NCBI GenBank assembly: GCA_963677595.1
Contig: OY782041.1
Span: forward strand, 2,656,001-2,720,000
Direction of reading: 5' to 3'
Source: Spirochaetia bacterium
GTDB taxonomy: Bacteria; Spirochaetota; Spirochaetia; CAKZLE01
Length of the DNA stretch: 64,000 nucleotides
The position numbers were made by a program, and so were the translations under genes. Shown here one piece after another: positions 1 to 14,353 of the stretch. How positions within the stretch are numbered: the stretch's first letter is position 1; each line of letters opens with the position of its first letter. The notes under the pieces were generated by a model. It did not search any database, had not been told where the DNA came from, and worked only from the letters and a program-made list of their open reading frames with translations.

Positions 1-104
1 ATTGTTAGATTTATTTGGAGTCATACTACAAATATAATACAAAAAATAAACTCATCGTGCAACGTATTCGTATGCTTTTTTCAGGAGGATTGAATGTATC
101 CCTT

Positions 105-143
105 TAAGGTTTGGAAAGAACGATAAACAGGTAGACAGACTAC
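105..143 (+). repeat. 39-bp direct repeat, copy 1 (downstream flank of AbiEi-like gene)
   Basis: TAAGGTTTGGAAAGAACGATAAACAGGTAGACAGACTAC; 35/39 identical to 1052-1090. Confidence 0.85.
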
Positions 144-144
144 C

Positions 145-978
145 TCATATACGCTCCTCCCATGAACGGTCCAGGATCTCGATCGGTACCATGAGATTCC
201 ATCGTTTGATGAACCTGCTCTTTTCCCTGGTCTTTCGATCCAGGTAATGGGGAGCTTTGGGTCTATGACGCTCGAATAGAGCCAGGGTTGCCTCATCAAC
301 CATGAACTGTTCGGAATGCTGTTCCAGGAAGAAGCCCGTTTTCGCATAGGTGGTCGCATTCCCCAGTTGAGAAACGTATGACCATACCAGTTCAAGATTG
401 AAGAACTCAATCGATTCAAGGGACCTCCATATCTCCTCCCAGGTCCCGGTCAAATCCGGTCTGTGAAGAGCATCCACGCAAGTCCGCTCGTATCCTGTGA
501 CCCTGATTTCCATCCCATGGTAGTCTATACTATCTATACCTAAAGATCGGTCAAATTGACTCAAAATCTGCGCAGGAAAGGATGTTCTTACAAAAGAGCA
601 GCCTTGGAACTGGAAAGGAGCAGCCTGTGCAGCAGACTCATAGGTGATACGTGAGTAGACACTGTATGCTTTGCCAAGGACTTCAAGGGCAGAGTGGTGT
701 GAGATTACTGCATCTGGAGTGATCCTGGCGGCGATATGAATCGGGTCCACTCTGAAGGTGTCTGCACAACTCTCCTCAGGGACTGCTGCATACAGGTTAC
801 GACGGATGGAGATGATCTTCCCTCCTTTCGTATAATACTGCAGGAGGGCTTTCCTTGTATGGGGATTACGTGAATGATGAGAATCAAGGAAGGTATGGAA
901 CTCAGGTAAGGAGAAGACGGGGTGGTTCCGGAAGAAGTGCGTACAGGTGTTTCTCTGTTTTTGACTATTTTCTATCAT
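145..978 (-). CDS. Type IV toxin-antitoxin AbiEi-family antitoxin / transcriptional regulator (orphan)
   Basis: N-terminal wHTH-like IISIRRNLYA, ISHHSALEVLG and VTGYERTCVD motifs typical of AbiEi; start set at ATG 978 (ORF extends to 1017). Confidence 0.8.
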   Translation of the reverse strand: MIENSQKQRNTCTHFFRNHPVFSLPEFHTFLDSHHSRNPHTRKALLQYYTKGGKIISIRRNLYAAVPEESCADTFRVDPIHIAARITPDAVISHHSALEVLGKAYSVYSRITYESAAQAAPFQFQGCSFVRTSFPAQILSQFDRSLGIDSIDYHGMEIRVTGYERTCVDALHRPDLTGTWEEIWRSLESIEFFNLELVWSYVSQLGNATTYAKTGFFLEQHSEQFMVDEATLALFERHRPKAPHYLDRKTREKSRFIKRWNLMVPIEILDRSWEERI

Positions 979-1000
979 AGTATTAATAATATTAATACTA
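978..1000. promoter_or_regulatory. 23-bp perfect inverted repeat overlapping promoter/start; probable autoregulatory operator
   Basis: TAGTATTAATA-A-TATTAATACTA; minus-strand TTGACA at 1012-1017. Confidence 0.6.
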
Positions 1001-1051
1001 ACACAATCATATGTCAAATACCATCACTGGGGAACTCCAAACAATCCCACG

Positions 1052-1090
1052 TAAGGTTTGGAAAGAACGATAACCAGGTAGCCGTACTAC
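1052..1090 (+). repeat. 39-bp direct repeat, copy 2 (upstream flank of AbiEi-like gene)
   Basis: TAAGGTTTGGAAAGAACGATAACCAGGTAGCCGTACTAC. Confidence 0.85.
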
Positions 1091-1644
1091 AAGTAAAGGC
1101 CAAAATATAAACTCATGGTAACGACTATGCTGTCGAGAGATACTCAGCAGCCATACGTGAGCGGGCAGAAGCTCTCGAAGTTCTTTGTATCTGTAAAGAA
1201 TACGTTTAGACCAAAAACGTGTTTGTGATAGATACGTTTTGCTGTTGTAGAATGTTCATGGAACGAACGGGTTCAATCCTGAAAAGTAGTCTTTGCTGAC
1301 ATCCAGCACTGTTGTGTATGTCTCACTGAATCCATATTCAAACAGTCCGGTCCCGGGTCCGTACGTCAATGCTCTGCTACGGGGAAAAGTAGTTATTCAC
1401 AACACAACAGTATGAGAGTATCACCCATAGCCCTTTTTTGATCTTTGCCTGCCACCAATCTTTTGCTGCAGCCGATGGTATAGTACTATTTCTATAAGGT
1501 ATTGATAGTATGCATCGCTGCCAAGGGAAGAAGAAGTGAGTTTTGACCTTATCACGATATACCTGCTCTCGGTCCTGGCACTGCTCGCCTGGAACGAGCT
1601 CTACTGCCGCATCCTGGTATGCAACATTCACAGGGAGCAGCAGA

Positions 1645-2343
1645 TCAGGCGAAGGGGGTCTTGGACTCCCGCCTCACCTGGATCTCGTCGATCGCGGCGT
1701 TGCCCCTCTGCCTGATGAGGAAGAGCACGATATCGGCGATCTCCTCCGGGGCGATGAGCTCATCCGTGTCGATGTCAGGCCGCATGCGGGTGACCATGTC
1801 AGTCGCGACCCCTCCCGGTGAGATCACATGGACCCTGATGCCGTCAGGCTGCAGCTCCTTCGCCAGTGACTTGCTGAAACCGAGCAGGGCATGCTTGGAG
1901 GCCGTATAGGCAGCCTGGCGCTCATAGCCCTTGGTCGCCACCACCGATGCGATGTTGATGATGAATCCCCGGTCCGGCTGCCGCAGGTAGGGTATCGCCT
2001 CCCTGCAGAGCAGGAAGGGCACCTTCGCGTTGAGGTGCATGACCCGGTCCCACTCCTTTGCGGTAGTCTCTTCCAGCGGCTTGGAGAGTGACCTGCCGGC
2101 ATTGTTGATGAGGATGTCGATCCCGCCCATGGCTTCGGCAGCCTCCCTGATCAGGATCTCCGGGTCGGCTGTCAGCAGGTCTTCTTGCCAGGGCAGGAGG
2201 TTCCCCGGGAACCCCTCGCCGGCCAGCACGGAGAGACCTGACAGGTCCCGCCCGACGGCGAAGACCGTATGTCCTTCCTGCAGCAGTGCCCTGGTGATGG
2301 CAAGCCCAATCCCTTTTGTCGCCCCGGTAACGAATGCTCTCAT
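1645..2343 (-). CDS. Short-chain dehydrogenase/reductase (SDR)
   Basis: TGATKGIG, NNAG and YTASK (YxxxK) motifs. Confidence 0.95.
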   Translation of the reverse strand: MRAFVTGATKGIGLAITRALLQEGHTVFAVGRDLSGLSVLAGEGFPGNLLPWQEDLLTADPEILIREAAEAMGGIDILINNAGRSLSKPLEETTAKEWDRVMHLNAKVPFLLCREAIPYLRQPDRGFIINIASVVATKGYERQAAYTASKHALLGFSKSLAKELQPDGIRVHVISPGGVATDMVTRMRPDIDTDELIAPEEIADIVLFLIRQRGNAAIDEIQVRRESKTPFA

Positions 2344-2469
2344 CTTCTTCTCCCCCTGTTCCTCTCAGTCTACCGTATTTCTCCTTCGCCTGGTAGTTCG
2401 TATATGAATTATTACCCAAACTGCCTGCATGATATAGCGAAGTGTCCGAAAACATGATACAAATTCCTT

Positions 2470-5262
2470 ATGTATACAGAACTGAACATCTCCTATATCA
2501 GGAACGAACTCGCACGGACACCGATCATCTACTCCCGGGGGGAGACCCTCTACCATCTCGGGGGTTATGCCCTGGTCGATTTCGACCCATCTACGCTGCG
2601 CTACCAGTACAGTTTCAACGGCACCTACGGTGAGTATGAGGTGGTCCTGCAGGCAGTCGAGATCAATGGGGAGGCGCACCTTGCATCCTCCTGCAGCTGT
2701 CCGTACCCCCACGGGGGCTGCAAGCATATCGTGGCAGCCCACCTGGATCTCTCCAGGCGGCTGCAGAACGCTGACTTCCCTGAGTACCAGGGAGTCGAGG
2801 AGCTCCTGGACCCGGAAGCAGAGACCGAACTGGGCAGTATCGGGGTGCTGACCCCGGAGGAGATCCGGGAGACGGCAGAAGCCTCCCGGTATGACCGAGC
2901 CGTACAGGAGACGCTCACGCTCATCCCGGGGGACCTCTTCAAGGGACAGCATACCGTCAGGAATGAGCAGTACCAGGAGTATACGGTGACCATCTATGAT
3001 GCGGACGAGGTCCATGGTCACTGCACCTGCCCCGATTTCGCCTCGAACAACCTGGGGCTGTGCAAGCACCTGGCCTTTGCCCATGCGGAGCTGAAGAAGA
3101 AGCGGGGGACGATCGGGAAGACCCGCAGGGATCCCTTCCCCTTCATCCACCTCACGTGGAACTCTCGTATCAGGAAGCCTGTATGCTTCTATGAGGTCAT
3201 CGAGGATGATGGGATCCGATCGCAGGTCGAAGGACTCTTCACCGCTCCCCTGAAGACCGGGGCAGACAGCGAGTATGAACAGAGACTCTGTATCTATACC
3301 AGGGAGAGTATCATGCCCCTGTACGAGCTCTTCACGAAGGCTTCCCTCAGCCCTGACGGGAGCCCGCTGGTCTTCGATGACCGCCTCATAGGTCAGATGA
3401 GCAGGATCTTCTCCCTTCAGGAACTCGAGCGTATAGCGCGAGACTACAGCTTCGACTACTCCTTCCTCAAGACCACACTCTATCCCTACCAGAAGGAGGG
3501 GGTCGAGTTCGCGGCTTTCCGGGACTCCTCCCTGATCGCCGATGAGATGGGGCTCGGGAAGACCCTGCAGGCGATCACGACGGCCGTCATCAAAAAGCAG
3601 GCCCTGGGGTTCACCAAGGTCCTGATCGTCTCCCCCGCATCCCTGAAGAGCCAGTGGGAGCACGAGATCGGGAGATTCACCGATGAGCAGGCCCTCGTCA
3701 TCTCGGGTCCAAGGGAGGAGCGCAAGCGGAAGTACCTTGAGGAACCTGCCTTCTTCAAGATCACCAACTACGAGGCAGTCCTGCGGGATATCTCGACCAT
3801 CGAGGAGTGGGACCCCGATTTCGTGATCCTCGATGAGGCCCAGCGCATCAAGAACTTCGAGACGAAGACCCACCGTGCCATCAACCGCATCCCAAGGAAG
3901 CACTCCCTCGTGATCACGGGTACCCCGCTGGAGAATCGGCTCGAGGACCTCTACAGCATCATGGAGTTCAGCAGCCCTGAGCTGCTGACACCTCTATGGG
4001 CATTCGCGGCGACCCATTACCGGATCAGCAGGACGAAGAAGAACAAAATCGTGGGGTACCGCAACCTCGATATCATCCACGATAAGCTCAAGCCCATCCT
4101 GATCAGGCGCACCAAGCGGGAAGTATTCGAATCGCTTCCCGAGATCACGGAGAACAACTTCTACCTGCCCCTCCACCCCAAGCAGGAGGAGATACACCAG
4201 GGGTGTATGTCGAGCCTGCGCAGGCTCGTGATGAAGAAGTTCCTCACCCCGATGGATGTGAGGATCCTGCAGAAGACCCTCCTGCGGGCCCGGATGGTCT
4301 GTGATTCCACCTTCCTCGTCGACAAGAAGACGAACTTCTCCCCGAAGCTCGCAGAACTTTCGAGCATCCTCTCAGAAGAGGTGGTCGGCAACGGCCGGAA
4401 GGCCGTCATCTTCACGGAATGGACGACGATGACCCACCTTGTCGGCAGGGTCCTGGAGGCGCAGGGGATCCGGTTCGTCGAGTTCAGCGGCAAGGTCCCC
4501 GTCGAGAAGCGGCAGAGGCTCATCGACGAGTTCATGGAGGATCCGGAGTGCCTGGTATTCCTCTCCACCGATGCGGGCGGGGTAGGGCTGAACCTGCAGA
4601 ACTGTGACCTCCTCATCAATGTCGAACTGCCCTGGAACCCTGCCAAGCTCAACCAGAGGATCGGCCGGATCCACCGGATCGGACAGACGAGCGAGAAGAT
4701 CAACGTCATCAACCTCTTGAGCCGCAACTCGATCGAGGAGCGGATCCTCGCATCCCTCTCGATGAAGCAGGACCTCTTCAACGCCGTCATCGACGGCACG
4801 GCTGATGCGGTAGACTTCAGCCGTGAGGAGCAGAACCGGTTCCTCGAGCAGGTACGTGCGATGTTCACTGATGATACTGAGATCGGTGTCCCGGAGGACC
4901 CGGAGGAGTTCCCGGAGGAGGAACTCTCCCCCGCCGAGACCATCGAGCAGGAGACGGAGGAGCTCCAGGTGGACCTGGAGGCTGAGGAATCGATCCCCCT
5001 GCAGGAGGAACCTGCAGCAGCCGCAGCCTCCGAAGGGGCAGCTTCCCATACAGAGAGCATCGGCTCCCCGGAGCCTGCTGCAGCTGAAGCACCCTCCATC
5101 GGCTACGATCAGCTGGAAGCGGTCCTGAACCAGGGACTCTCTTTCCTCAACACCCTGACTGCTGCGGCGACCGGTAAGGAGCTGTTCAGTGCCGATGATG
5201 ACAGAAAGCATGTTGAGATAGACCGGGAACACGGAGAGGTCGTGCTCCGATTCAAACTCTGA
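2470..5262 (+). CDS. SNF2-family helicase/ATPase with two SWIM zinc fingers
   Basis: SWIM CSCPYPHGGCKH and CTCPDFASNNLGLCKH; LIADEMGLGKT, DEAQ, TGTP, GGVGLNL, QRIGRIHRIGQ; acidic C-terminal linker. Confidence 0.95.
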   Translation: MYTELNISYIRNELARTPIIYSRGETLYHLGGYALVDFDPSTLRYQYSFNGTYGEYEVVLQAVEINGEAHLASSCSCPYPHGGCKHIVAAHLDLSRRLQNADFPEYQGVEELLDPEAETELGSIGVLTPEEIRETAEASRYDRAVQETLTLIPGDLFKGQHTVRNEQYQEYTVTIYDADEVHGHCTCPDFASNNLGLCKHLAFAHAELKKKRGTIGKTRRDPFPFIHLTWNSRIRKPVCFYEVIEDDGIRSQVEGLFTAPLKTGADSEYEQRLCIYTRESIMPLYELFTKASLSPDGSPLVFDDRLIGQMSRIFSLQELERIARDYSFDYSFLKTTLYPYQKEGVEFAAFRDSSLIADEMGLGKTLQAITTAVIKKQALGFTKVLIVSPASLKSQWEHEIGRFTDEQALVISGPREERKRKYLEEPAFFKITNYEAVLRDISTIEEWDPDFVILDEAQRIKNFETKTHRAINRIPRKHSLVITGTPLENRLEDLYSIMEFSSPELLTPLWAFAATHYRISRTKKNKIVGYRNLDIIHDKLKPILIRRTKREVFESLPEITENNFYLPLHPKQEEIHQGCMSSLRRLVMKKFLTPMDVRILQKTLLRARMVCDSTFLVDKKTNFSPKLAELSSILSEEVVGNGRKAVIFTEWTTMTHLVGRVLEAQGIRFVEFSGKVPVEKRQRLIDEFMEDPECLVFLSTDAGGVGLNLQNCDLLINVELPWNPAKLNQRIGRIHRIGQTSEKINVINLLSRNSIEERILASLSMKQDLFNAVIDGTADAVDFSREEQNRFLEQVRAMFTDDTEIGVPEDPEEFPEEELSPAETIEQETEELQVDLEAEESIPLQEEPAAAAASEGAASHTESIGSPEPAAAEAPSIGYDQLEAVLNQGLSFLNTLTAAATGKELFSADDDRKHVEIDREHGEVVLRFKL
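5154..5262 (+). repeat. 109-bp repeat A, copy 1 (3' end of SNF2 gene)
   Basis: 99/109 identical to 6316-6424. Confidence 0.95.
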
Positions 5263-5277
5263 AGATAAGGCGAGGAA

Positions 5278-6177
5278 GTGCATACGATGGATTACGTGAA
5301 CGAACAGGAACTGCTGGAAGATGATTATTTCAGGTTGACGTTCAAGGATGGGGAGTTCGAAGGGAGGACCTTCCTCGGGGCTGTATTCGTGAGCTGTTGG
5401 GATGTGACCTGCACCTGCGGGACCATCGGTATCAAGTATCATGAGGATGTCAGCCCGGATGCTGACGGCAGCATGGTGAGCGTGCAGCCTCTGTACCAGA
5501 TCGTGATCGATGCCAAAGAGAGGGAACTTGTCCTGCCGGCGCCCGAAGAACGTGAGAACGATCCTGAGCTCTTTCGGTTCGCGGAGGCTTGCCTCGCTGA
5601 TTTCACAGACCAGGATTGGAGCCTGTTCGCGTTCTATGAGAACCTGTTCAAGGTGTCTCTCATGGAATCTGCCACGGATCTCTCTACCTATGAGATCGAC
5701 TTCTCGGATCCCGATAGCATGGATGGGGAATTCATCAGCTATACAGAGATCTTCCCCTATGCTGAACGGATCTATGCGGATGTGGACGGAGAGAATTATT
5801 GGCTGGAGGATCGGTATCACCTCTACAACTCCCACCCCTACTGCTATATCGCGATGGTGGAAATGCCATTCCAGGAGGATAATGTTCCGATCCTGATGTT
5901 GTATAACTATAAGACTGGTGAATGGGGTGTTGCCAAAGAGGGGGATATAAAGCCTCCGACAGGGTTGGCCGCCGAGGCCATCTCCTACCTTGCTGCTGAG
6001 TATCCCGAATACCGCGATATGCTGAAGAAGCGGCACCGGACCCTGGAAAAGCTCTATGATGCCTACCAGAAGAGGACTGCCCGGACGGCAGCACCCCTTA
6101 AGCCAAAGACCCCAGGCCGCAACGATCCCTGCCCCTGCGGGAGCGGGAAGAAGTACAAACGATGCTGCGGCAGGTAA
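5278..6177 (+). CDS. SEC-C motif protein 1 (function unknown)
   Basis: C-terminal GRNDPCPCGSGKKYKRCCG; N-terminal CWDVTCTCG; start GTG 5278 or ATG 5287. Confidence 0.85.
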   Translation: MHTMDYVNEQELLEDDYFRLTFKDGEFEGRTFLGAVFVSCWDVTCTCGTIGIKYHEDVSPDADGSMVSVQPLYQIVIDAKERELVLPAPEERENDPELFRFAEACLADFTDQDWSLFAFYENLFKVSLMESATDLSTYEIDFSDPDSMDGEFISYTEIFPYAERIYADVDGENYWLEDRYHLYNSHPYCYIAMVEMPFQEDNVPILMLYNYKTGEWGVAKEGDIKPPTGLAAEAISYLAAEYPEYRDMLKKRHRTLEKLYDAYQKRTARTAAPLKPKTPGRNDPCPCGSGKKYKRCCGR

Positions 6178-6185
6178 GGTGTTAA
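6101..6185 (+). repeat. 85-bp repeat B, copy 1 (SEC-C tail plus 8 nt after the stop)
   Basis: 82/85 identical to 7287-7371. Confidence 0.95.
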
Positions 6186-6315
6186 TTTTCGACTATTCGC
6201 TGAATCGTGTGGGTAGGAGAATAAAAGGATAATAACACATTGAGGATTTCCCCAGCACTTGGTAAGCTTACTGTATAGATATACAGGAGGCTGAAGTATG
6301 GATAATTCTCAGTAT

Positions 6316-6424
6316 CCTGACTGCTGCAGCGACCGGCAAGGAACTGTTCAGTGCCGAAGATGACGGAAAGCATGTTGAGATAGACCGGGAACGCGGAGAG
6401 GTCGTGCTCCGGTTCAAATTGTAA
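6316..6424 (+). pseudogene. Orphan copy of the SNF2 helicase C-terminal ~35 codons (repeat A, copy 2)
   Basis: Reads LTAAATGKELFSAEDDGKHVEIDRERGEVVLRFKL* versus helicase LTAAATGKELFSADDDRKHVEIDREHGEVVLRFKL*; no in-frame ATG after the upstream stop at 6263-6265. Confidence 0.85.
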
Positions 6425-6451
6425 TGAACAGGAACGGAGGATAGAGCCCAG

Positions 6452-7363
6452 ATGGGGAGACCAGAACAACACGATATGCATGGGGAATTCCTGACGCAGA
6501 CCTTTGACCGGGGTGAATTCTCAGGTCGGGTCTTCAAGGCACGGGCATCCCTGGTCTGTGAGAGTCCAGTGTGCACCTGTGGAGAGCTAAAGCTCTCCTT
6601 CAGAGAGATCAGTGACAGTCCTTCAAGTGATCGGCACAATTTCGATATGGTCTTGAGTACGGTGAGCCGGAAGCTTGCACAGCCTCGGGGGCGTCAGAGA
6701 AAAGAGGACCCAGAGGGGTATCGGTTTGCCGTTGACTTCATCAATGACGTTGATGATACGCTTTGGATGCTGCTTGCTAGGCTCTACGATGCATTGATGA
6801 GGGAGCGTATGGGGGCGATCAAGGACCCCGGTTCGATTGAGATCGATTTCTTTATGCATAATGTCGCTGAGGGAGACCTGGTCGGCTATACGGAGGTGCT
6901 TCCCTATGCGGACCCGTTTGTCATTTCAGTTGACGACGCAGTTTATCTGGTAGAGGATACCTACTGCATCTCTCCTGTCTGCCACTGTACTGACCCCCTT
7001 CTCAGTTTCTTCCTGATCGCAGACAGTGATCGCGCTGACGTCCCCGTTGCGGTAATGCAGTATGACTATAAGACACGAACTTGGTCGAACTATTCTGATT
7101 CATCTGCGCCGCTTCCAGGGATTGCCAGCATATTCAAGTCGGCCTTTGCCCTTCAGTACCCTGCCTTTCGGGATGAACTGAAGGAGCGGCACAGGATCAT
7201 GAGAAGGCTGTATGCGGCATACCTGGACAGGTATGCCGCGGGGATACAGCCAGGCTTCGAGTCTGTGCAGGACAGCAGGGCACCTCAGCCAAAGACCCCA
7301 GGCCGCAACGATCCCTGCCCCTGCGGGAGCGGGAAGAAGTACAAACGGTGCTGCGGCAGGTGA
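6452..7363 (+). CDS. SEC-C motif protein 2 (divergent paralog of 5278-6177)
   Basis: Same SEC-C tail; CESPVCTCG and YCISPVCHC motifs; shared YTE(I/V)xPY and Y(N/D)YKT segments; GGAGG upstream. Confidence 0.85.
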   Translation: MGRPEQHDMHGEFLTQTFDRGEFSGRVFKARASLVCESPVCTCGELKLSFREISDSPSSDRHNFDMVLSTVSRKLAQPRGRQRKEDPEGYRFAVDFINDVDDTLWMLLARLYDALMRERMGAIKDPGSIEIDFFMHNVAEGDLVGYTEVLPYADPFVISVDDAVYLVEDTYCISPVCHCTDPLLSFFLIADSDRADVPVAVMQYDYKTRTWSNYSDSSAPLPGIASIFKSAFALQYPAFRDELKERHRIMRRLYAAYLDRYAAGIQPGFESVQDSRAPQPKTPGRNDPCPCGSGKKYKRCCGR

Positions 7364-7371
7364 GGTGCTAA
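7287..7371 (+). repeat. 85-bp repeat B, copy 2
   Basis: 82/85 identical to 6101-6185. Confidence 0.95.
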
Positions 7372-8171
7372 ACTGCCTTGCTCGCCTGGATGATCGCCGA
7401 GACGATGTACTCCTCTACATGGCGTCCGGGGGCCCAGTCCCTGAGGAACTCCCTGCTCGCATCCTTCGGCGTGATGGTTATCCCGGTGAAGCCTGCGGCG
7501 GTGAGGATCCCCTCGAGTTCCTCGATCGAGGATGCCCCCGACACACAGCTCGAGTAGAGCTTCATGTCCTCCCGCATCTCCTCCGGCAGCTCTGCGGTCG
7601 TCACGACATCGGAGATGGAGAGACGTCCACCTGCCTTCAGTACCCGGTATGCTTCATCGAAGACCCGCTGTTTCTCGGGCGAGAGGTTGATCACGCAGTT
7701 CGAGAGGATCACGTCGACCGAGTTGTCTGCCACCGGCAGCTTCTCGATCTCCCCGATGCGGAACTCCACATTGTCAAACCCGGCCTTCTCGGCATTATGG
7801 CGAGCCCTCCCCACCATGCCGGGGGTCATGTCGACCCCGATCACCTGTCCGGTCTCACCGACCGCGCGGGCTGCGAGGAAGCTGTCGATCCCGGCACCGC
7901 TGCCCAGGTCGAGGACGGTCTCCCCGGGTTCCAGGGAGGCGATGGCCACGGGATTCCCGCAGCCCAGCCCCAGGTTCGCCCCGTCGGGGATCAGCTCCAG
8001 GTCCGCTATGGTGTACCCTAGCATCGAAGAGAGCGTCTGTGGATCTGCCCCCGGGCTGCAGCAGCCTGAGTCTGATGAACAGCAGCATCCCGAAGAGATG
8101 ACCTTCCCGTAGTCCTTTCTGACAGAGTCCCTGATGGAATCAGGCCTGAGAGCCTGAGGGGCTTGTGCCAT
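7368..8171 (-). CDS. arsM: Arsenite S-adenosylmethionine methyltransferase
   Basis: GLGCGNP, LDLGSGAG and SNCVINL motifs; Cys-rich N-terminus GCCC...GCC. Confidence 0.9.
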   Translation of the reverse strand: MAQAPQALRPDSIRDSVRKDYGKVISSGCCCSSDSGCCSPGADPQTLSSMLGYTIADLELIPDGANLGLGCGNPVAIASLEPGETVLDLGSGAGIDSFLAARAVGETGQVIGVDMTPGMVGRARHNAEKAGFDNVEFRIGEIEKLPVADNSVDVILSNCVINLSPEKQRVFDEAYRVLKAGGRLSISDVVTTAELPEEMREDMKLYSSCVSGASSIEELEGILTAAGFTGITITPKDASREFLRDWAPGRHVEEYIVSAIIQASKAV

Positions 8172-8186
8172 ATTGTGCCTCCTTAC

Positions 8187-8206
8187 ATTTAGTCATTTAG
8201 CTAAAT
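8187..8206. promoter_or_regulatory. Inverted repeat upstream of arsM; putative ArsR/SmtB-type operator
   Basis: ATTTAG-TCATTTAG-CTAAAT just upstream of the AAGGAGG RBS. Confidence 0.5.
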
Positions 8207-8228
8207 ATAGCGATGGTAAGGGAGAGTG

Positions 8229-10658
8229 TCAATGCCTCAGGTGCATGAGCTTGAGTGCTGTGCGATCCTTGGGGATATCACCGAGCAGTGAGATCCTCCG
8301 AGGCCTGTCGGGGAAGAGGTGGAAGCAGTTATCGCTGAAGCGCCCCTTCCACCCGGGAAGCTCGAGCCACAGGTAGAGGACCGGCACATCGGTCTCAAGG
8401 ATGACCTCACTCCCCGTGACCGGGGTGACCTTCACGGCTGCTTCCCTCAGGCCGCAGCGCTTGGGTTCGGCAAAGAGGAGGGTGGTCTCCGCTTCCGGTA
8501 TATCCCCATCGGGGATGAACCGGACCCGCAGGCAGGATGCGAATCTCTCAGCTTCCGAAAGCTCCAAACCGAACATCTCCATGGATGTTGATGCTTCAGC
8601 CTCGAGGACGGCCTTGTCTTCAAGGAGTCCTCTCACCGCACCGTCGAAGTCGACCAGGTCTACCTGGAGGCTGCCGCTAACCGGTGCCTCCGTATCGTTC
8701 ACACCATAGATAGTGATGGTACCGGGAGACTCCTCCCTGACCGTGATCATGAGCGGGGCGAAGAAGCGGGCTGCAGCGTAGTGGAGGGTCTTCCACCTGC
8801 CCCCGTACTCGATCGAGGACCAGGAGGCTGCAGGCCAGGTATCGTTGAGCTGCCAGTAGAGGGCTCCCATGCAGAGTGGACGCTTCGAGCGCCAGTACTC
8901 GACTGCGGTGGTGATGGCCAGCGCCTGCTGCACCTGGCTCAGGTAGACCTGGTCAGAGAAGGAGGCGGGGAGTCGGAAGTACCGGGTGAACGTCGAGAGG
9001 ATGATCGAGTTCCCGCGGTCGTTTCGCTGATGGTGCTCCATGACCGGGCTGCTGATGTTCAGGTCCTCACCTGTATCGCAGAAGGACTCGATCAGGGGGA
9101 GGGACGGGAAGGACTGGAAGCCGAACTCGGAACAGAAGCGTGGGGTAACCTCATGATAGGCCTCGAAGGGCTTCCCCTCGTGCCAGACACTCCAGTAGTG
9201 CATGTCGCCCTTCGAGTCATCATGCCAGTTGTCCGAGTAGTCGCCTTCGCCGGCTGAGGGGGAGGAGGGCCACCAGGTCCGGTTGGGGTCAAGCTCCCTG
9301 ACCGTGCTGCCGATGATCCCCTCGTTGAGCCGGTCATAGTCGATGAGGTAGCGGTCCCGCTGCTTCCGCGACTCCTCGAACCAGGTCAACGCCCCGATAT
9401 CTTCGTTATTCCCGCACCAGAGTGCGATGGAGGGGTGATCCTTCAGGCGCTTGACCTGGTGGCGAACCTCTTCGTTGACATTCTCAAGGAAATACTCCTG
9501 TGCAGGGTAGAGGGCGCAGGAGAACATGAAGTCCTGCCAGACCATGAGGCCGAGCCGGTCGCAGAGACCGTAGAACCAGTCAGGCTCATACCTGCCGCCT
9601 CCCCAGACGCGTATCATGTTCATATTGGCATCGACTGCCGACTGGAGCAGACCCTCCACGTCAGTCTCCCTGATCCTGCCGGGAAGCGAGTCGGCAGGTA
9701 TCCAGTTGGCTCCCTTGCAGAAGATATCCTTCCCGTTGACCCGGAAGGTCATCGGCCTGCCGTGGGCATCTGGTGTGGTATCGACCTCTACCGTCCTGAA
9801 CCCTACCTGCTTGTTCACCGCATCATGCCCTGTCTTCACGCGCAGCTCATAGAGCGGCTGTTCCCCGTAGCCTGCCGGCCACCAGGGTTCCACCCCGTCT
9901 ATGGTGAGGGTCCTCGTTAGCTCGGTGCTGCCGACCTGCAGGAGTATTCTCTCCTCATGCCGGACTCCGGCACACGAGATCGTGAGCGTCGTCTCCCCGG
10001 TGCGTGAGGACTGCAGTTCGGTCACCACATCGAGGAGCCACCGATCCCCATCCCTGGTGAGGTTCGTGTGGACATACTCGATCCGCTCGAGGGGGGAGGC
10101 AAGGAGGACGGGGGCCTCATAGAGACCTGCGACCATGAGGCAGGGACCCCAGTCCCAGCCGCCGTGGCACTGGACCTTCCTGATGAGGTTCCGGTGGGGC
10201 GACTGGGTGGGGTAGGTCATATAGGGGACCGGGTAGGGGAGCCGGGTGCTCAACTCCCGGGCCTTCTGTTCGGCCGATGAGAGCTTGACGGTGATCGTGT
10301 TCGTCCCTGCAGTCACGGTCCCCGATACATCGAACCGGTATCGCACGAACATGTTCTCACAGGTGCCGATGACCGTCCCGTTGAGGAGGACCTCAGCGAA
10401 GGTGTCGACACTCTCGAGCTCGAGGAAGAGCTCTCCTGACTCAAGGAGGGAAGCCGGGCAGTCGAACTCCCTGGCCAGGATCCAGTCGACCCTGCCGATC
10501 CACTGAAGCTCCTGCTCCTGCATCCCGTGAAACGGGTCAGGGATCAGGCCCGCTTCCAGGAGTGCGGTATGGGTATCCCCGGGGATGGCTGCCGGGATGT
10601 CTATACCCCGTTCAGCCTGCTGAAGTCGCCAGTTCCCGTCCAGTGTGATCCGTTCCAT
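8229..10658 (-). CDS. Beta-mannosidase-like glycoside hydrolase, family GH2
   Basis: GWDWGP, KGANWIP, RVWGGG, WQDFMF, WCGNNE, SEFGFQS, YWQLND motifs. Confidence 0.92.
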
Positions 10659-10725
10659 ATCGCATCCTCCTTGTGCAGCCCGTTACCGCCTGCCAGTGTT
10701 CGTAAAAATTCTACCATATTTTTGG

Positions 10726-10782
10726 TTGACAGCATGTAAGACTCATGTAATACTCTAGTTAGTTGATTTAAAAACCAACTAA
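10726..10782 (+). promoter_or_regulatory. Promoter (-35 TTGACA) with ROK/XylR-type operator
   Basis: TTGACA 10726-10731; TTAGTTG-N10-CAACTAA at 10759-10782 resembles Bacillus XylR operators. Confidence 0.7.
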
Positions 10783-10838
10783 AGAATCATAGCATGATTA
10801 CGTACAGGATGCAATCAGAATAGGAGCAATCATAATCG

Positions 10839-12002
10839 ATGAAGCGTACGAAACGGATTAACAGGGCACTGATCCTCAGGGAGATCTGGCAGCAGCATGA
10901 GACCAGCCGCATCGAGATCGCCCGGAGCCTCGAACTGGACAAGTCCACTGTTTCCAATGCCGTGAAGGAGCTCATCGATGCTGGCATCATCATTGAGACC
11001 GAGGAGGGGAGGTCCGGCCCCCAGGGGGGACGGAAGCCCAAGTTCATCTCGCTCAACAGCGAGTACGGCTGCATCCTCGGGGTGGAGATCACCCCTGAAC
11101 AATGCACGGCTGTGGCACTGGACCTCACCGGGGAGATCATCGGCTCCTGGGTACACCCGCTCTCACTCCATGGGAAGGACCTGACCGAGCTCTTCACCGG
11201 CTGTCTGGAACGGCTCGTGGAGGAGGTCGAGAAGACGGGAAAGGAGCTGCTCGGCATCGGGGTCGGGATCTCCGGTGTCGTCAACGGTGAGGCGGGGATC
11301 ATCATGTACTCCGAACCGCTTGGGATCACGGAGGATTATGACTTCTACCAGGAGGTCTCCTCCCATTTCAGCGTCCCTGTCTTCATCGACAATGATGCCA
11401 ATGCCTGTGTGTGGGGGGAGCTTGCCTTCCACCGCAGGGCAGAGTTGAGGGACTTTCTCTTCCTGCTCCTCGAGTTCCGGGACTACGACCCCGCAGTCGA
11501 TCCGGTCTGCAACCGGATCGCTGTCGGTATGGGTATCGTCATCGGCGGTGCGGTCCACTACGGGACCCAGTACTCAGCCGGTGAGTTCCGGTCGATCTAC
11601 CGGCGTGATGATTCGGTGGGGCAGTTCTCCCTGACCGAGGACGAGCAGCAGCGGATCTTCTCCGACCCCGCGGTGATGGAGAAACTCCTTACCGAGCTCT
11701 TCGCCCATACCGGCCTGATCATGAACACCTTTAACCTGAGCCATGTGATCCTCGGAGGGGCGTTCGAGGAGCTTGGGGATTCGGTGAAGCAGATCCTTGA
11801 ACAGGAGATCCGCAGGAACTGGCCCTATCCCTACCGGTATATGGTCAATGAGAATATCTGGTTCTCGTCATTCGGGAAGCAGGCAGTATCCTACGGCGCA
11901 GCCGGGATGGTGCTCAACACCCTCTTCGGCGAGGCTGATGTACTGGAAGGCATTAGCAGAAGACGGAACCTGCAGGACGGGATCGTCGTCTTCTCGAAAT
12001 AG
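10839..12002 (+). CDS. ROK family transcriptional regulator
   Basis: N-terminal HTH SRIEIARSLELDKSTVS, GGRKP, DNDANA, AGEF. Confidence 0.92.
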   Translation: MKRTKRINRALILREIWQQHETSRIEIARSLELDKSTVSNAVKELIDAGIIIETEEGRSGPQGGRKPKFISLNSEYGCILGVEITPEQCTAVALDLTGEIIGSWVHPLSLHGKDLTELFTGCLERLVEEVEKTGKELLGIGVGISGVVNGEAGIIMYSEPLGITEDYDFYQEVSSHFSVPVFIDNDANACVWGELAFHRRAELRDFLFLLLEFRDYDPAVDPVCNRIAVGMGIVIGGAVHYGTQYSAGEFRSIYRRDDSVGQFSLTEDEQQRIFSDPAVMEKLLTELFAHTGLIMNTFNLSHVILGGAFEELGDSVKQILEQEIRRNWPYPYRYMVNENIWFSSFGKQAVSYGAAGMVLNTLFGEADVLEGISRRRNLQDGIVVFSK

Positions 12003-12018
12003 TAGAGTTGGGATTTCA

Positions 12019-12040
12019 CAGGCCTGCAGCTGCAGGCCTG
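12019..12040. repeat. 22-bp perfect palindrome between ROK and SBP genes
   Basis: CAGGCCTGCAGCTGCAGGCCTG. Confidence 0.8.
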
Positions 12041-12087
12041 GAAAAAGAGTAAAGAATTTTCTCTAAGAAAGGAGAAAAGGGGGAAAC

Positions 12088-13380
12088 ATGAAAAAAGTGA
12101 AAGTGGTTCTTGCCGTGATCGTACTGTCGGTCTTCCTGATCGGGACAGTCAGCGCTCAGGGTGCAGTGGAATCAGCAGGTCCTGAGAAGGTCGTGGTCAA
12201 GGCAATGGCGTATGGCGACAACTCAAACCAGGAAGGTGTGAACTGGGTTCGAATCGTCAATTCGTTCGAGGAAGAGAATCCGAACATCGACATCGACTAT
12301 GAGATGCTCTATGACGAGGCGTACCACCAGAAGGTCGTTGCACGGCTTGCTTCTGGCGACGTGCCTGACTTGGCGTACATGGGTGCAGACGCCCGATGGG
12401 GACTCCCCTGGAAGGAAGCAGGACAGCAGCTTGACATCACTCCTTACATTGACGCAAGCTACTACGACCTGAACCTGATCCCCTCGATGGGGCCGAACGG
12501 TGAGATCTATGAGATCCCCCTTGGGACGAGCAACATCACCACCGTACTATTCATGAACGAGAACCTGGTGAAGGAACTCGGCTTCAGCGCACCGAAGACC
12601 TATGAGGACCTCGTAGCCATGGTTCCTGCTGCCAAGAAGGCAGGCGTGGAAGTCGTGAGCATCGACGGTGCTGATGGTTGGGCATGGGGTTCCTGCCTGA
12701 TGTCTACGGTCATCGCACGCATGTCAGGGGACGCTGCATGGGTCTCCAAGGCAGTCGCAGGCGAGAACAAGTTCAACGACCCGGCAATGGTCAAGTCGCT
12801 TGACTTCCTCTCACAGATGGTCGAAGACGGGGTGATCTCTTCCAAGTCAGTCCTCGTCGACTACGGTGCCAACGTATCGAACTACAGCAACGGCAAGGCT
12901 CTCTTCATGGTACAGGGACAGTGGGTCGCAGGAAGCATCGAGAATCCTGAAGTGGCTGAGGCTACCAAGATGATCGCTTGGCCGAAACTCCCCGGCGAGA
13001 AGGGAACCGCAGGTTCAGTCGCAGCAGCCATCCAGGTCGGCTACGGCCTCACCAAGCAGGGAGCTTCAGACCCTGCAGTCAGGGATGCAGCCCTCAAGTT
13101 CATCCAGTACTTCTACAGCCATGCTGAGACTACCCAGAGACTGATTGACGGTGCTATCGTGGCTCCTATCCTCAAGAACTTCAAGGTCCCTGCTGACCTG
13201 CCGACTATCATGAAGGAGAAGGTCGCCCTCGCACAGAGCGCACCAACCACAGACGTCATCGACGCATTCTTGAGCGGTGCAGCCAATGATGAGCTCAATG
13301 CCGGCATGCAGAAGATCGTCAGCGGACAGGCAACTGCCCAGGAGATCGCAGACAAGGTAGAATCCCTCGTAACGAGGTAG
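12088..13380 (+). CDS. Carbohydrate ABC transporter substrate-binding protein
   Basis: Signal peptide; SBP features FEEENPNIDI, LASGDVPDL, GKALF; precedes two permeases. Confidence 0.92.
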   Translation: MKKVKVVLAVIVLSVFLIGTVSAQGAVESAGPEKVVVKAMAYGDNSNQEGVNWVRIVNSFEEENPNIDIDYEMLYDEAYHQKVVARLASGDVPDLAYMGADARWGLPWKEAGQQLDITPYIDASYYDLNLIPSMGPNGEIYEIPLGTSNITTVLFMNENLVKELGFSAPKTYEDLVAMVPAAKKAGVEVVSIDGADGWAWGSCLMSTVIARMSGDAAWVSKAVAGENKFNDPAMVKSLDFLSQMVEDGVISSKSVLVDYGANVSNYSNGKALFMVQGQWVAGSIENPEVAEATKMIAWPKLPGEKGTAGSVAAAIQVGYGLTKQGASDPAVRDAALKFIQYFYSHAETTQRLIDGAIVAPILKNFKVPADLPTIMKEKVALAQSAPTTDVIDAFLSGAANDELNAGMQKIVSGQATAQEIADKVESLVTR

Positions 13381-13396
13381 GTACCATACCAAGGTC

Positions 13397-13422
13397 AAGC
13401 GGGAGGGGAAACCCTCCCGCTT
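13397..13422 (+). terminator. 11-bp stem with GAAA loop after SBP gene (mRNA stabiliser / partial terminator)
   Basis: AAGCGGGAGGG-GAAA-CCCTCCCGCTT, no long U-tract. Confidence 0.65.
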
Positions 13423-13450
13423 CATGTAACAGATACTGGAGGAGACGAAC

Positions 13451-14353
13451 GTGACGAAACGAGACCTGCGGGATGTGCCGGCTTACCTGGCATTGATAGC
13501 CCCCGCCCTGATCATCTACCTGTTCATCATAGCCTACCCGATAGTCTACTCGGTTTGGCTCAGCTTCACCGATTTCAACCCGAACAGGGGCGGTGAGTGG
13601 AGTTTCGTCGGCCTCCTGCAGTATCGGGGGATGTTCACAGACCCCTACTTCTGGCATGCACTGAAGAACAACCTCATCGTCGTGGCCATCTCGGTCTTCG
13701 GCCAGATCCCGCTCGGGTTCGTCCTGGCCTACATCATCTACCGGAAGATGGTGAAGGGGTCCAACTTCTTCCAGGTCGTGGTGTTCCTGCCCCATTTCCT
13801 CTCGACGATCGTCATCGGTATCCTCTGGAAGCGGATGTTCCAGGCCGACGGCCCTGTCTCGAGGCTGCTGCAGCTCATACACCATGACCCGTCCGCCCAG
13901 TTCGAGATGATGCTCTACCCGGAGACGGTCATGATCCCGATCGGGTTCGCCCTCATCTGGATCTATACCGGGCTCTACATGATCATCTTCCTGGCCAATC
14001 TCCAGAAGATCGACGACAACCTCATCGAGGCAGCCAAGATCGACGGAGCGACCGAGCCCCAGGTCTTCCTCAAGGTGATCGTGCCGATCCTCTCGGGAAC
14101 GATCATCGTCTCCACGATCCTCGCGATCGCCGGGTCCCTCAGGGGGTTCGACCTGATCTTCTCGATCACGACCCAGGGGCTGCAGCGGAACAATGCCATG
14201 GTGCTGCCGATCTTCATGTACCAGACAGCTTTCCAGGATTATGCGAATGATATGCGGTTCGCCTACGGTGCCGCGATCTCGAACATCATCGTGGTGATCA
14301 GCCTGCTGCTGATAGGCGTCAGCAAGCTGATCGGCAGGAACAGTGAGGAGTAG
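13451..14353 (+). CDS. Carbohydrate ABC transporter permease
   Basis: Multiple TM segments; EAA motif EAAKIDGA. Confidence 0.93.
   Translation: MTKRDLRDVPAYLALIAPALIIYLFIIAYPIVYSVWLSFTDFNPNRGGEWSFVGLLQYRGMFTDPYFWHALKNNLIVVAISVFGQIPLGFVLAYIIYRKMVKGSNFFQVVVFLPHFLSTIVIGILWKRMFQADGPVSRLLQLIHHDPSAQFEMMLYPETVMIPIGFALIWIYTGLYMIIFLANLQKIDDNLIEAAKIDGATEPQVFLKVIVPILSGTIIVSTILAIAGSLRGFDLIFSITTQGLQRNNAMVLPIFMYQTAFQDYANDMRFAYGAAISNIIVVISLLLIGVSKLIGRNSEE

Follow-up and report, generated by a model that had tools for sequence, protein, structure and literature searches.

A helicase gene followed by two SEC-C genes in a Spirochaetia genome: a probable recombination scar

How does one helicase gene come to be followed by two dissimilar genes whose ends are almost the same? 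The question is raised by a locus at positions 2470 to 7371 of a 64,000-nucleotide stretch of a Spirochaetia bacterium genome (assembly GCA_963677595.1, contig OY782041.1, positions 2,656,001 to 2,720,000, forward strand). We call this whole stretch the window. A gene for a double-SWIM SNF2-family ATPase (the helicase) is followed by SECC1 and SECC2, which encode proteins ending in a SEC-C motif. The order along the window is helicase, A, SECC1, B, spacer, A', SECC2, B', where A is the 3' end of the helicase gene, B is the end of SECC1, and A' and B' repeat them. An earlier interpretation made without database searches, the sequence-only reading, described a cassette-like array giving the helicase exchangeable partners. 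Its order and repeat figures hold on recount; the "array" has two genes only. The region is probably a recombination scar in which two alleles of a helicase–SEC-C–arsM locus were stitched in tandem, with the SEC-C gene an accessory passenger and not a required helicase subunit.

The repeats give the first evidence. A and A' differ at 10 of 109 nt (5154-5262 against 6316-6424), and seven of the ten differences are silent, including a TGA/TAA stop swap. The silent share expected for random single changes is 23% (P for at least seven of ten, 0.002). Because of this excess, A' appears to come from a once-working helicase allele and to have evolved as coding DNA, as the sequence-only reading held. 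Identity between B and B' is 96% across their 85 nt, with 24 of 25 third positions equal. No A- or B-like repeats at length occur elsewhere in the 4.33-Mb genome, where only 38-nt SEC-C motif matches are found. No inverted repeat pair rises above background in window positions 1-14000; the repeats are direct, unlike those of an hsdS-type shufflon. This layout is not a mis-assembly, since contigs of run X1 bridge both joints with 0 differences (B to spacer, 6172-6266 plus 40 nt upstream; spacer through A' to SECC2, 6284-6684) and a contig from another sample (X9) also covers the B-to-spacer joint. X1 may be the source sample of the assembly.

The spacer carries its own history. It is the left end of an ISL3-family insertion sequence (IS) that breaks off after five transposase codons, where a microhomology of 4 nt or more joins it to A'. 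Compared with two whole ~1.4-kb elements (L188 and L179), its first 26 nt, which begin at 6191, agree with their right inverted repeat at 23-24 of 26 positions and with their left repeat at 19 of 26. In both elements the Pfam models DDE_Tnp_ISL3, HTH and Zn ribbon all score over cut-off, and L188 has a perfect 8-bp target duplication. The distance from transposase ATG to left end is 104-105 nt in the whole elements and 107 nt in the window. The motif at 6191 occurs at 11 places in JGI metagenome contigs, followed in 9 by the same transposase 3' end. Other X1 contigs carry 6220-6313 and then run into the reading frame MDNSQLFTQALGLEE, which resembles the ..DIFTQALGL start of the ISL3 transposases in L188 and L179. 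The window stub stops at five codons and lacks a whole transposase, a second end and a target duplication. At its joint with A', CTCA is common to 6308-6311 and 5146-5149, a 4-nt microhomology that extends to as many as 7 nt if the second allele reads as A'. The stub was not found in the 5 other genomes of the order, nor the IS-end pattern in viral contigs, and the genome's own ISL3 transposase genes do not have an end in common with it. A' and the stub are likely non-functional. A scan for promoters and terminators gave signals no better than those of shuffled sequence.

A trace of arsM lies behind SECC1. Read on the minus strand, positions 6182-6184, within B, spell a stop whose register is that of the arsM stop codon at 7368-7370. 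Because this old arsM stop lies in the 8 nt past the SECC1 stop, SECC1 would once have been followed by arsM, and the stop in B reads as the remnant of a deleted copy. The intact arsM behind SECC2 is the only close copy in the genome.

A close strain retains what looks like the earlier arrangement. In run X2, one 2528-nt contig (depth 132) covers 3831-6162 at 97.6% identity (57 differences), skips 1186 nt to resume at 7349-7413, and then has 32 nt like arsM near 7634-7663 before the IS end, 6190-6233. The arsM-to-IS joint is seen also in run X5 from the same sample, and SECC2 has no cover in X2. This single-gene strain, ~97% identical, therefore has the order helicase, SECC1, B', broken arsM, IS end. 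A joint of the B x B' type, which the sequence-only reading had proposed to look for in reads, is present there. A clean B x B' deletion would drop the stub and leave arsM whole. Because the IS end and the broken arsM are both kept, this strain more plausibly carries the SECC1 allele in its unstitched state than the product of a cassette popping out.

The SEC-C bodies are much older than the ends that enclose them. SECC1 and SECC2 were first thought to share short motifs only; they are full-length homologs, aligning end to end at 36% identity (110/309, E 1e-59) and at 32% without the SEC-C tail. The bodies have diverged by ~1.1 substitutions per site against 0.10 for A/A', which does not fit the even divergence of a simple tandem duplication, as had been argued. 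A second species of the genus (G002) supplies a yardstick. Its helicase (72% identity) is followed by one family gene, inside which the contig ends. That gene is 27% identical to SECC1 and 34% to SECC2, so SECC1 and SECC2 are about as distant from each other as either is from it. The A stretch of G002 has 31-33 differences in 108 nt, threefold the divergence of A from A'. On this scale, the A/A' divergence predicts ~70% identity between the bodies, against the 32% observed. GC content at third codon positions is 0.67 and 0.60 in the bodies and 0.80-0.82 in their neighbours, and a stand-alone gene from another family (L200) is 33-36% identical to SECC1 and SECC2 both. Because the bodies are far older than A/A' and B/B', a distant homolog likely took the place of one of them, inside conserved flanks, at some time before the stitching. 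The earlier proposal of a variable middle exchanged between conserved ends survives as this one swap.

These observations suggest a history of three steps. First, crossovers in the SEC-C tail and in the 3' end of the helicase gene would have exchanged the fast-evolving SEC-C body for a distant homolog, so that two alleles, SECC1 and SECC2, came to exist. In the SECC1 lineage, an ISL3 element would then have broken arsM, after which arsM and the element eroded. Finally (step 3), a DNA piece of one allele would have recombined through homology at one end and through the short microhomology between the IS stub and the helicase 3' end at the other; the homologous end most likely lay in the helicase, or failing that in arsM or further out. 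The resident 3' end and its gene would have been pushed downstream, and the resulting chromosome would hold both SEC-C genes together with a whole arsM. Had the SECC2 side been the donor, recovery of arsM could be what selection favoured. The genome has comEC and dprA, and DNA uptake may have driven the stitching event. The features are collected in Table 1.

Table 1. Features of the helicase–SEC-C–arsM locus, in window coordinates
Feature	Position	Strand	Description
Helicase	2470..5262	+	double-SWIM SNF2-family ATPase, 930 aa; Pfam: 2 SWIM, SNF2, Helicase_C
Repeat A	5146..5262	+	3' end of the working helicase gene
SECC1	5278..6177	+	299 aa (296 from ATG at 5287)
Repeat B	6101..6185	+	SEC-C tail of SECC1 plus 8 nt
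ISL3-family stub	6191..6313	+	left end, 123 nt; terminal inverted repeat from 6191
Ribosome-binding site in stub	6286-6290	+	
Transposase start in stub	6298	+	ATG and first five codons
Repeat A'	6308..6424	+	apparently displaced 3' end from a second helicase allele, ~38 codons plus stop
SECC2	6452..7363	+	303 aa; two CxxPxCxC repeats and C-terminal SEC-C motif
Repeat B'	7287..7371	+	SEC-C tail of SECC2 plus arsM stop codon
arsM	7368..8171	-	intact arsenite methyltransferase ArsM, convergent, right flank of locus; NCBIfam PRK11873, 356 bits (cut-off 263)

Displacement of this kind has been proposed for other loci. For the immunity arrays of the Vibrio cholerae type VI secretion system (T6SS), the proposed route has the incoming piece anchored in a conserved upstream gene (PMC5361080), and a circular intermediate is proposed for displacement of rhs C-terminal ends (PMC2935791). 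As in those arrays, an incoming piece would here push the resident 3' end and the downstream gene back, and near-identical direct repeats of the anchor's end stand before a variable, lower-GC part. A', such an anchor-end repeat, precedes SECC2. In contrast to those arrays, the anchor is an SNF2 helicase where theirs is a secreted toxin carrier; what varies is a gene of its own whose copies are homologous, where theirs is a fused, non-homologous toxin tip; and there is one event in one lineage, without an immunity gene and without strings across many strains. The helicase stops at the end of A, and the SEC-C genes are separate frames with their own starts. Where rhs, contact-dependent inhibition (CDI) and Maf loci combine a toxin, an immunity gene and a delivery core, this one has an SNF2 ATPase anchor and one gene per unit, the two units being 36% identical throughout. 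No toxin or delivery family matched the locus proteins in Pfam, PADLOC or NCBIfam scans, which could miss a hidden toxin activity of the body. The likeness to rhs/cdi cassettes drawn in the sequence-only reading thus stands for how the layout arose, by displacement, and fails for fused tips, non-homologous units, immunity gene and delivery core.

The joint itself resembles homology-facilitated illegitimate recombination, in which microhomologies of 3-10 bp and insertions of ~1 kb are typical (PMC3240628). The locus shares one homologous end, one joint in this microhomology range and ~1 kb inserted. It differs from the published cases in that the event is here inferred from sequence alone, and no matching deletion can be shown. 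No recombinase was found by Pfam among seven neighbouring proteins; wider frames were read by eye only. On its most likely reading, as a probable stitching of two alleles, the locus is not a new system. It would be a natural case, resolved in detail, of 3' displacement in the rhs/T6SS style outside toxin loci, and a close strain shows the unstitched allele.

A second assembly (4.36 Mb) encodes the helicase, SECC1 and SECC2 proteins; the order of the genes there was not seen. Its proteins differ from those of the window at 3 of 930 residues in the helicase, 11 of 296 in SECC1 (all past residue 144) and 22 of 303 in SECC2 (Fisher p 2e-11 and 8e-4). This pattern points to an imported tract beginning in the middle of SECC1, and the region would seem to keep recombining. 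Between the single-gene strain and the window there are 10 protein differences in the 296 residues of SECC1 and 16 in the 930 of the helicase (p 0.10), with 19 and ~78 nucleotide differences, respectively. Selection on both genes appears relaxed but still purifying. This is a rough estimate that assumes P0121 and P0126 to be the proteins of the single-gene strain (their 4017-nt contig is the two X2 contigs joined).

Is the SEC-C gene tied to the helicase elsewhere? We examined 94 other helicase loci, of which 78 are distinct and reach the gene end; the helicase scan behind the counts that follow kept 80 of the 547 matches listed. The SEC-C alignment was too variable to serve for a locus scan. 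A SEC-C family gene stands next to the helicase at one of the 78 (G002), and a two-gene array at none. Genes downstream of the others are unrelated, bar five small clusters. Elsewhere in helicase-bearing genomes a full-length family gene was found in 2 of 50, on other contigs. Full-length matches occur in 1 of 400 other genomes of the phylum, and body-only profile matches in 14 of 330 genomes of the class. We also collected 19 distinct stand-alone family genes (12 two-repeat or partial, 7 single-repeat) with flanks of 1.5 to 9 kb. One of these adjoins a SWIM-SNF2 relative: in G275 (L191:7216-9490) it lies tail to tail with, and 40 bp from, a single-SWIM SNF2 gene that is one open frame with its first ATPase lobe deleted. 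One- and two-gene forms occur in close strains, and the genus offers a single further genome with the locus, on a contig that is cut. The link between helicase and SEC-C gene is at most optional. Absence of linkage in other genomes had been named beforehand as telling against a helicase with exchangeable partners, and it is largely what these counts give (1/78; 2/50; 1/19); the partner system is not supported by them.

Several points weigh against the scar and passenger interpretation. The helicase scan kept 80 of the 547 matches listed, and many of the loci lie on short metagenome contigs, with at least 1 kb downstream in 66 of 78 and at least 2.5 kb in 50 of 78. The order of helicase then SEC-C gene is kept in G002, where the contig is cut inside the SEC-C gene and an array is possible. 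Together with the G275 adjacency in another family, this order exceeds what pure chance would suggest. The single-gene strain is known from contigs of one sample, matched at 85% likeness, and either allele may have been the donor in step 3. Both SEC-C genes are intact and both proteins recur in the second assembly, so the pair is not quickly lost.

Some of these points would favour a lineage-restricted exchange locus. The SEC-C protein would then be the variable specificity or sensing partner of the helicase, its alleles swapped between the conserved ends under diversifying selection, for example by phage, and two alleles would be favoured. Three very different bodies (SECC1, SECC2 and that of G002) do stand behind closely related helicases, the body is older than its flanks, and the SEC-C genes diverge 12-24 times more than the helicase between two close assemblies. 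To these may be added the second adjacency in G275, two AbiE modules 1.5-4 kb upstream, and Rugutis, an unrelated SEC-C-motif protein which is reported to be an antiphage system (PMC11381338). We nevertheless consider an exchange locus unlikely. In the DNA available for them, 77 of 78 other loci do not have the gene next to the helicase, 48 of 50 helicase genomes have no full-length family match, and 18 of 19 stand-alone genes have no helicase near. There is no excess of amino-acid changes: ~10 of the 19 SECC1 differences from the single-gene strain are replacements, where about three in four would be if random (a rough figure, assuming P0121). An IS stub forms the joint, rather than any designed site. 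If the helicase really did use swappable SEC-C partners, a bacterial SNF2 motor would here have a diversity-generating locus of a new type, and orphan SNF2 ATPases would gain a testable function. A broader proposal is that the helicase 3' end is a recurrent anchor that captures or replaces conflict genes, here a hypervariable zinc-repeat SEC-C protein of undescribed fold serving as the helicase's exchangeable sensor. The locus would then generate diversity by displacement without belonging to a toxin system. We regard this too as unlikely.

A comparable scar, in a planctomycete and at one of the 78 loci, carries other cargo. In Ca. Anammoxibacter (L073, 9440-10904), an orphan 259-nt helicase 3' end lies 1204 nt downstream and is 92% identical, with 11 of 18 changed codons silent. 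It stands behind a DUF4258-DUF2283 pair. Occurring as it does outside the spirochaete phylum, this scar is consistent with a recombination accident of a general kind, for which a conserved gene amid variable DNA serves as anchor. A short repeated element is also present at the L073 joint.

Could the same scar have arisen through a small circle? A circle of A-SECC1-B-IS stub, or of IS stub-A'-SECC2-B', would have been excised in another cell and have entered the chromosome through one crossover. Insertion of such a circle, of 1162 or 1186 bp, at A or B yields exactly the observed layout, and a model of this kind is described for rhs tips (PMC2935791). This route is very unlikely, as it needs the IS-to-helicase microhomology joint beforehand, so that the origin of the joint would have to be explained in another cell instead. 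There was no sign of a circle. A back-joint in run X8, from SECC2 6581-6608 to A' at 6307, was considered as a third arrangement and rejected; it falls on GATC (6607-6610) and CTNAG (6308-6312). We take it to be a filled-in ligation product of GATC/CTNAG sites.

An ancient tandem duplication with ends later homogenised by gene conversion is less probable again, to the point of being hard to credit. SECC1 is the third-best match of SECC2 among 1.84 billion representatives, and a quick tree is compatible with a single clade for the two (support 47). Conversion followed by neutral decay would not give seven silent differences of ten in a non-coding A'. The B'-type end and arsM remains behind SECC1 in the single-gene strain, the old arsM stop in B, and the equal likeness of L200, from another family, to both proteins also speak against it. 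An assembly artefact joining two strains, suggested by genome marker contamination of 6.3% and two haplotypes over SECC2 in run X1 and named in the sequence-only reading as a possible refutation, is virtually excluded by the contigs that bridge both joints without differences, by the second sample at the B-to-IS joint and by the presence of both proteins in the second assembly.

What, then, are the SEC-C proteins? SECC1 has two predicted CxxPxCxC repeats and a C-terminal SEC-C motif; in the family alignment its second Cys triad is replaced by His/His/Tyr. SECC2 lacks a lysine that is 98% conserved in the family. The ~20-residue CPCGSGKKYKxCC motif (PF02810) is shared with the SecA tail, YecA, YchJ, PDC-S12 and Rugutis; it is N-terminal in Rugutis and C-terminal in SECC1 and SECC2. 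The ~260-aa body matched no Pfam, NCBIfam, PADLOC or PHROGs model, SEC-C matches being confined to the tail. It belongs to a large unnamed family: the SECC2 body alone matches 563 clusters at 50% identity. SEC-C was the only domain that Pfam matched in any number among 59 aligned members. The two CxxPxCxC triads are 97-99% conserved in 135 members, and the two halves of the family body align to each other (hhalign probability 96.7%). A body profile gave no matches in 331 genomes of another phylum, a search that had no positive control.

Structure prediction agrees with a repeated body. The AlphaFold2 model of P0002, a 93%-identical SECC2 allele, has a mean predicted local distance difference test score (pLDDT) of 85 and two beta-sheet-plus-helix domains; a single-repeat model reaches 88. 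Searches with the whole model gave no clear match (the best values were E 7e-3 in Foldseek against PDB, Z 5.8 in VIA and TM 0.21 among viral structures), and the best Foldseek PDB hit of the single repeat had E 0.13. In the Atlas only "hypothetical protein" clusters matched, under 0.9. From their motifs, the SEC-C proteins are predicted to bind zinc. The protein is most likely a two-repeat binding module stabilised by zinc, probably without enzymatic activity, that belongs to variable genome islands. A defence role is conceivable but rather doubtful; the two AbiE modules just upstream and the antiphage role reported for Rugutis speak for it. The SEC-C bodies had no defence-system match in PADLOC or NCBIfam scans, PADLOC having been suggested as a check, and defence models matched through the tail alone. 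We found nothing on the body family or on a helicase–SEC-C layout in the open-access literature. The family is unnamed and widespread, its model is confident and no fold clearly matches it, which makes it useful for annotation and as a structure target.

Single-repeat forms of ~170 aa (L204-L208, L213, L214) occur in one spirochaete family, at most three per genome. In L202 / L210 (G885), a family gene is split between its two repeats into overlapping frames, through a frameshift or as a split gene.

In the helicase, the motor motifs GKT, DEAQ, TGT and QRIGRIHRIGQ are intact, and the SNF2 N-lobe, the Helicase_C lobe, the Walker and motif VI residues and SWIM are all present. A variable acidic linker leads to a conserved C-terminal domain of ~55 residues. 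Relatives of the helicase span several phyla, the closest among the matches listed being in Spirochaetales. It shares the SNF2 motor core with ZorD, DrmD, DpdE, BrxHI/II and RapA (PADLOC, NCBIfam) and differs from them in its double SWIM N-terminus and distinct C-terminal domain. Matches to Zorya, DISARM, Dpd and BREX models run through the motor alone (residues ~330-790) and lie well under cut-offs; the best NCBIfam score is 243 against a cut-off of 1100, and ZorD gives 154 against 1500. No partner genes of these systems were recognised adjoining the helicase, whose neighbours are an SDR gene, the SEC-C genes and arsM. A scan with the helicase as single-protein query gave no matches. Presumably the predicted protein works alone as an SNF2-type DNA translocase. 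The C-terminal domain (window 5095-5262) has no Pfam model and is found in 85 of 95 loci, across several phyla.

Some smaller features of the surroundings remain to be described. An AT-rich palindrome at 6269-6288 is the genome's best match to the Escherichia coli LexA box. As it sits in the IS stub and other stub copies differ there, it was set aside as evidence for a DNA-damage response. Palindromes like it, at G000 1434425 and 3475873, stand before amino-acid genes, which are unrelated. A lone copy of the ISL3 end lies at G000:C1 ~3572595-3572619, by a YefM/YoeB-like pair (named by eye) and a second AbiE-like pair, with comEC 3 kb away. Upstream of the helicase, an AbiEi gene (window 145-1017, minus strand; PADLOC 1e-97) is flanked by short direct repeats, 105-143 / 1052-1090 and 19-58 / 1080-1119. 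It is followed by an apparent second AbiEi and an AbiEii-type gene (G000, window-relative -1641 to 24), possibly a similar stacking of antitoxin alleles.

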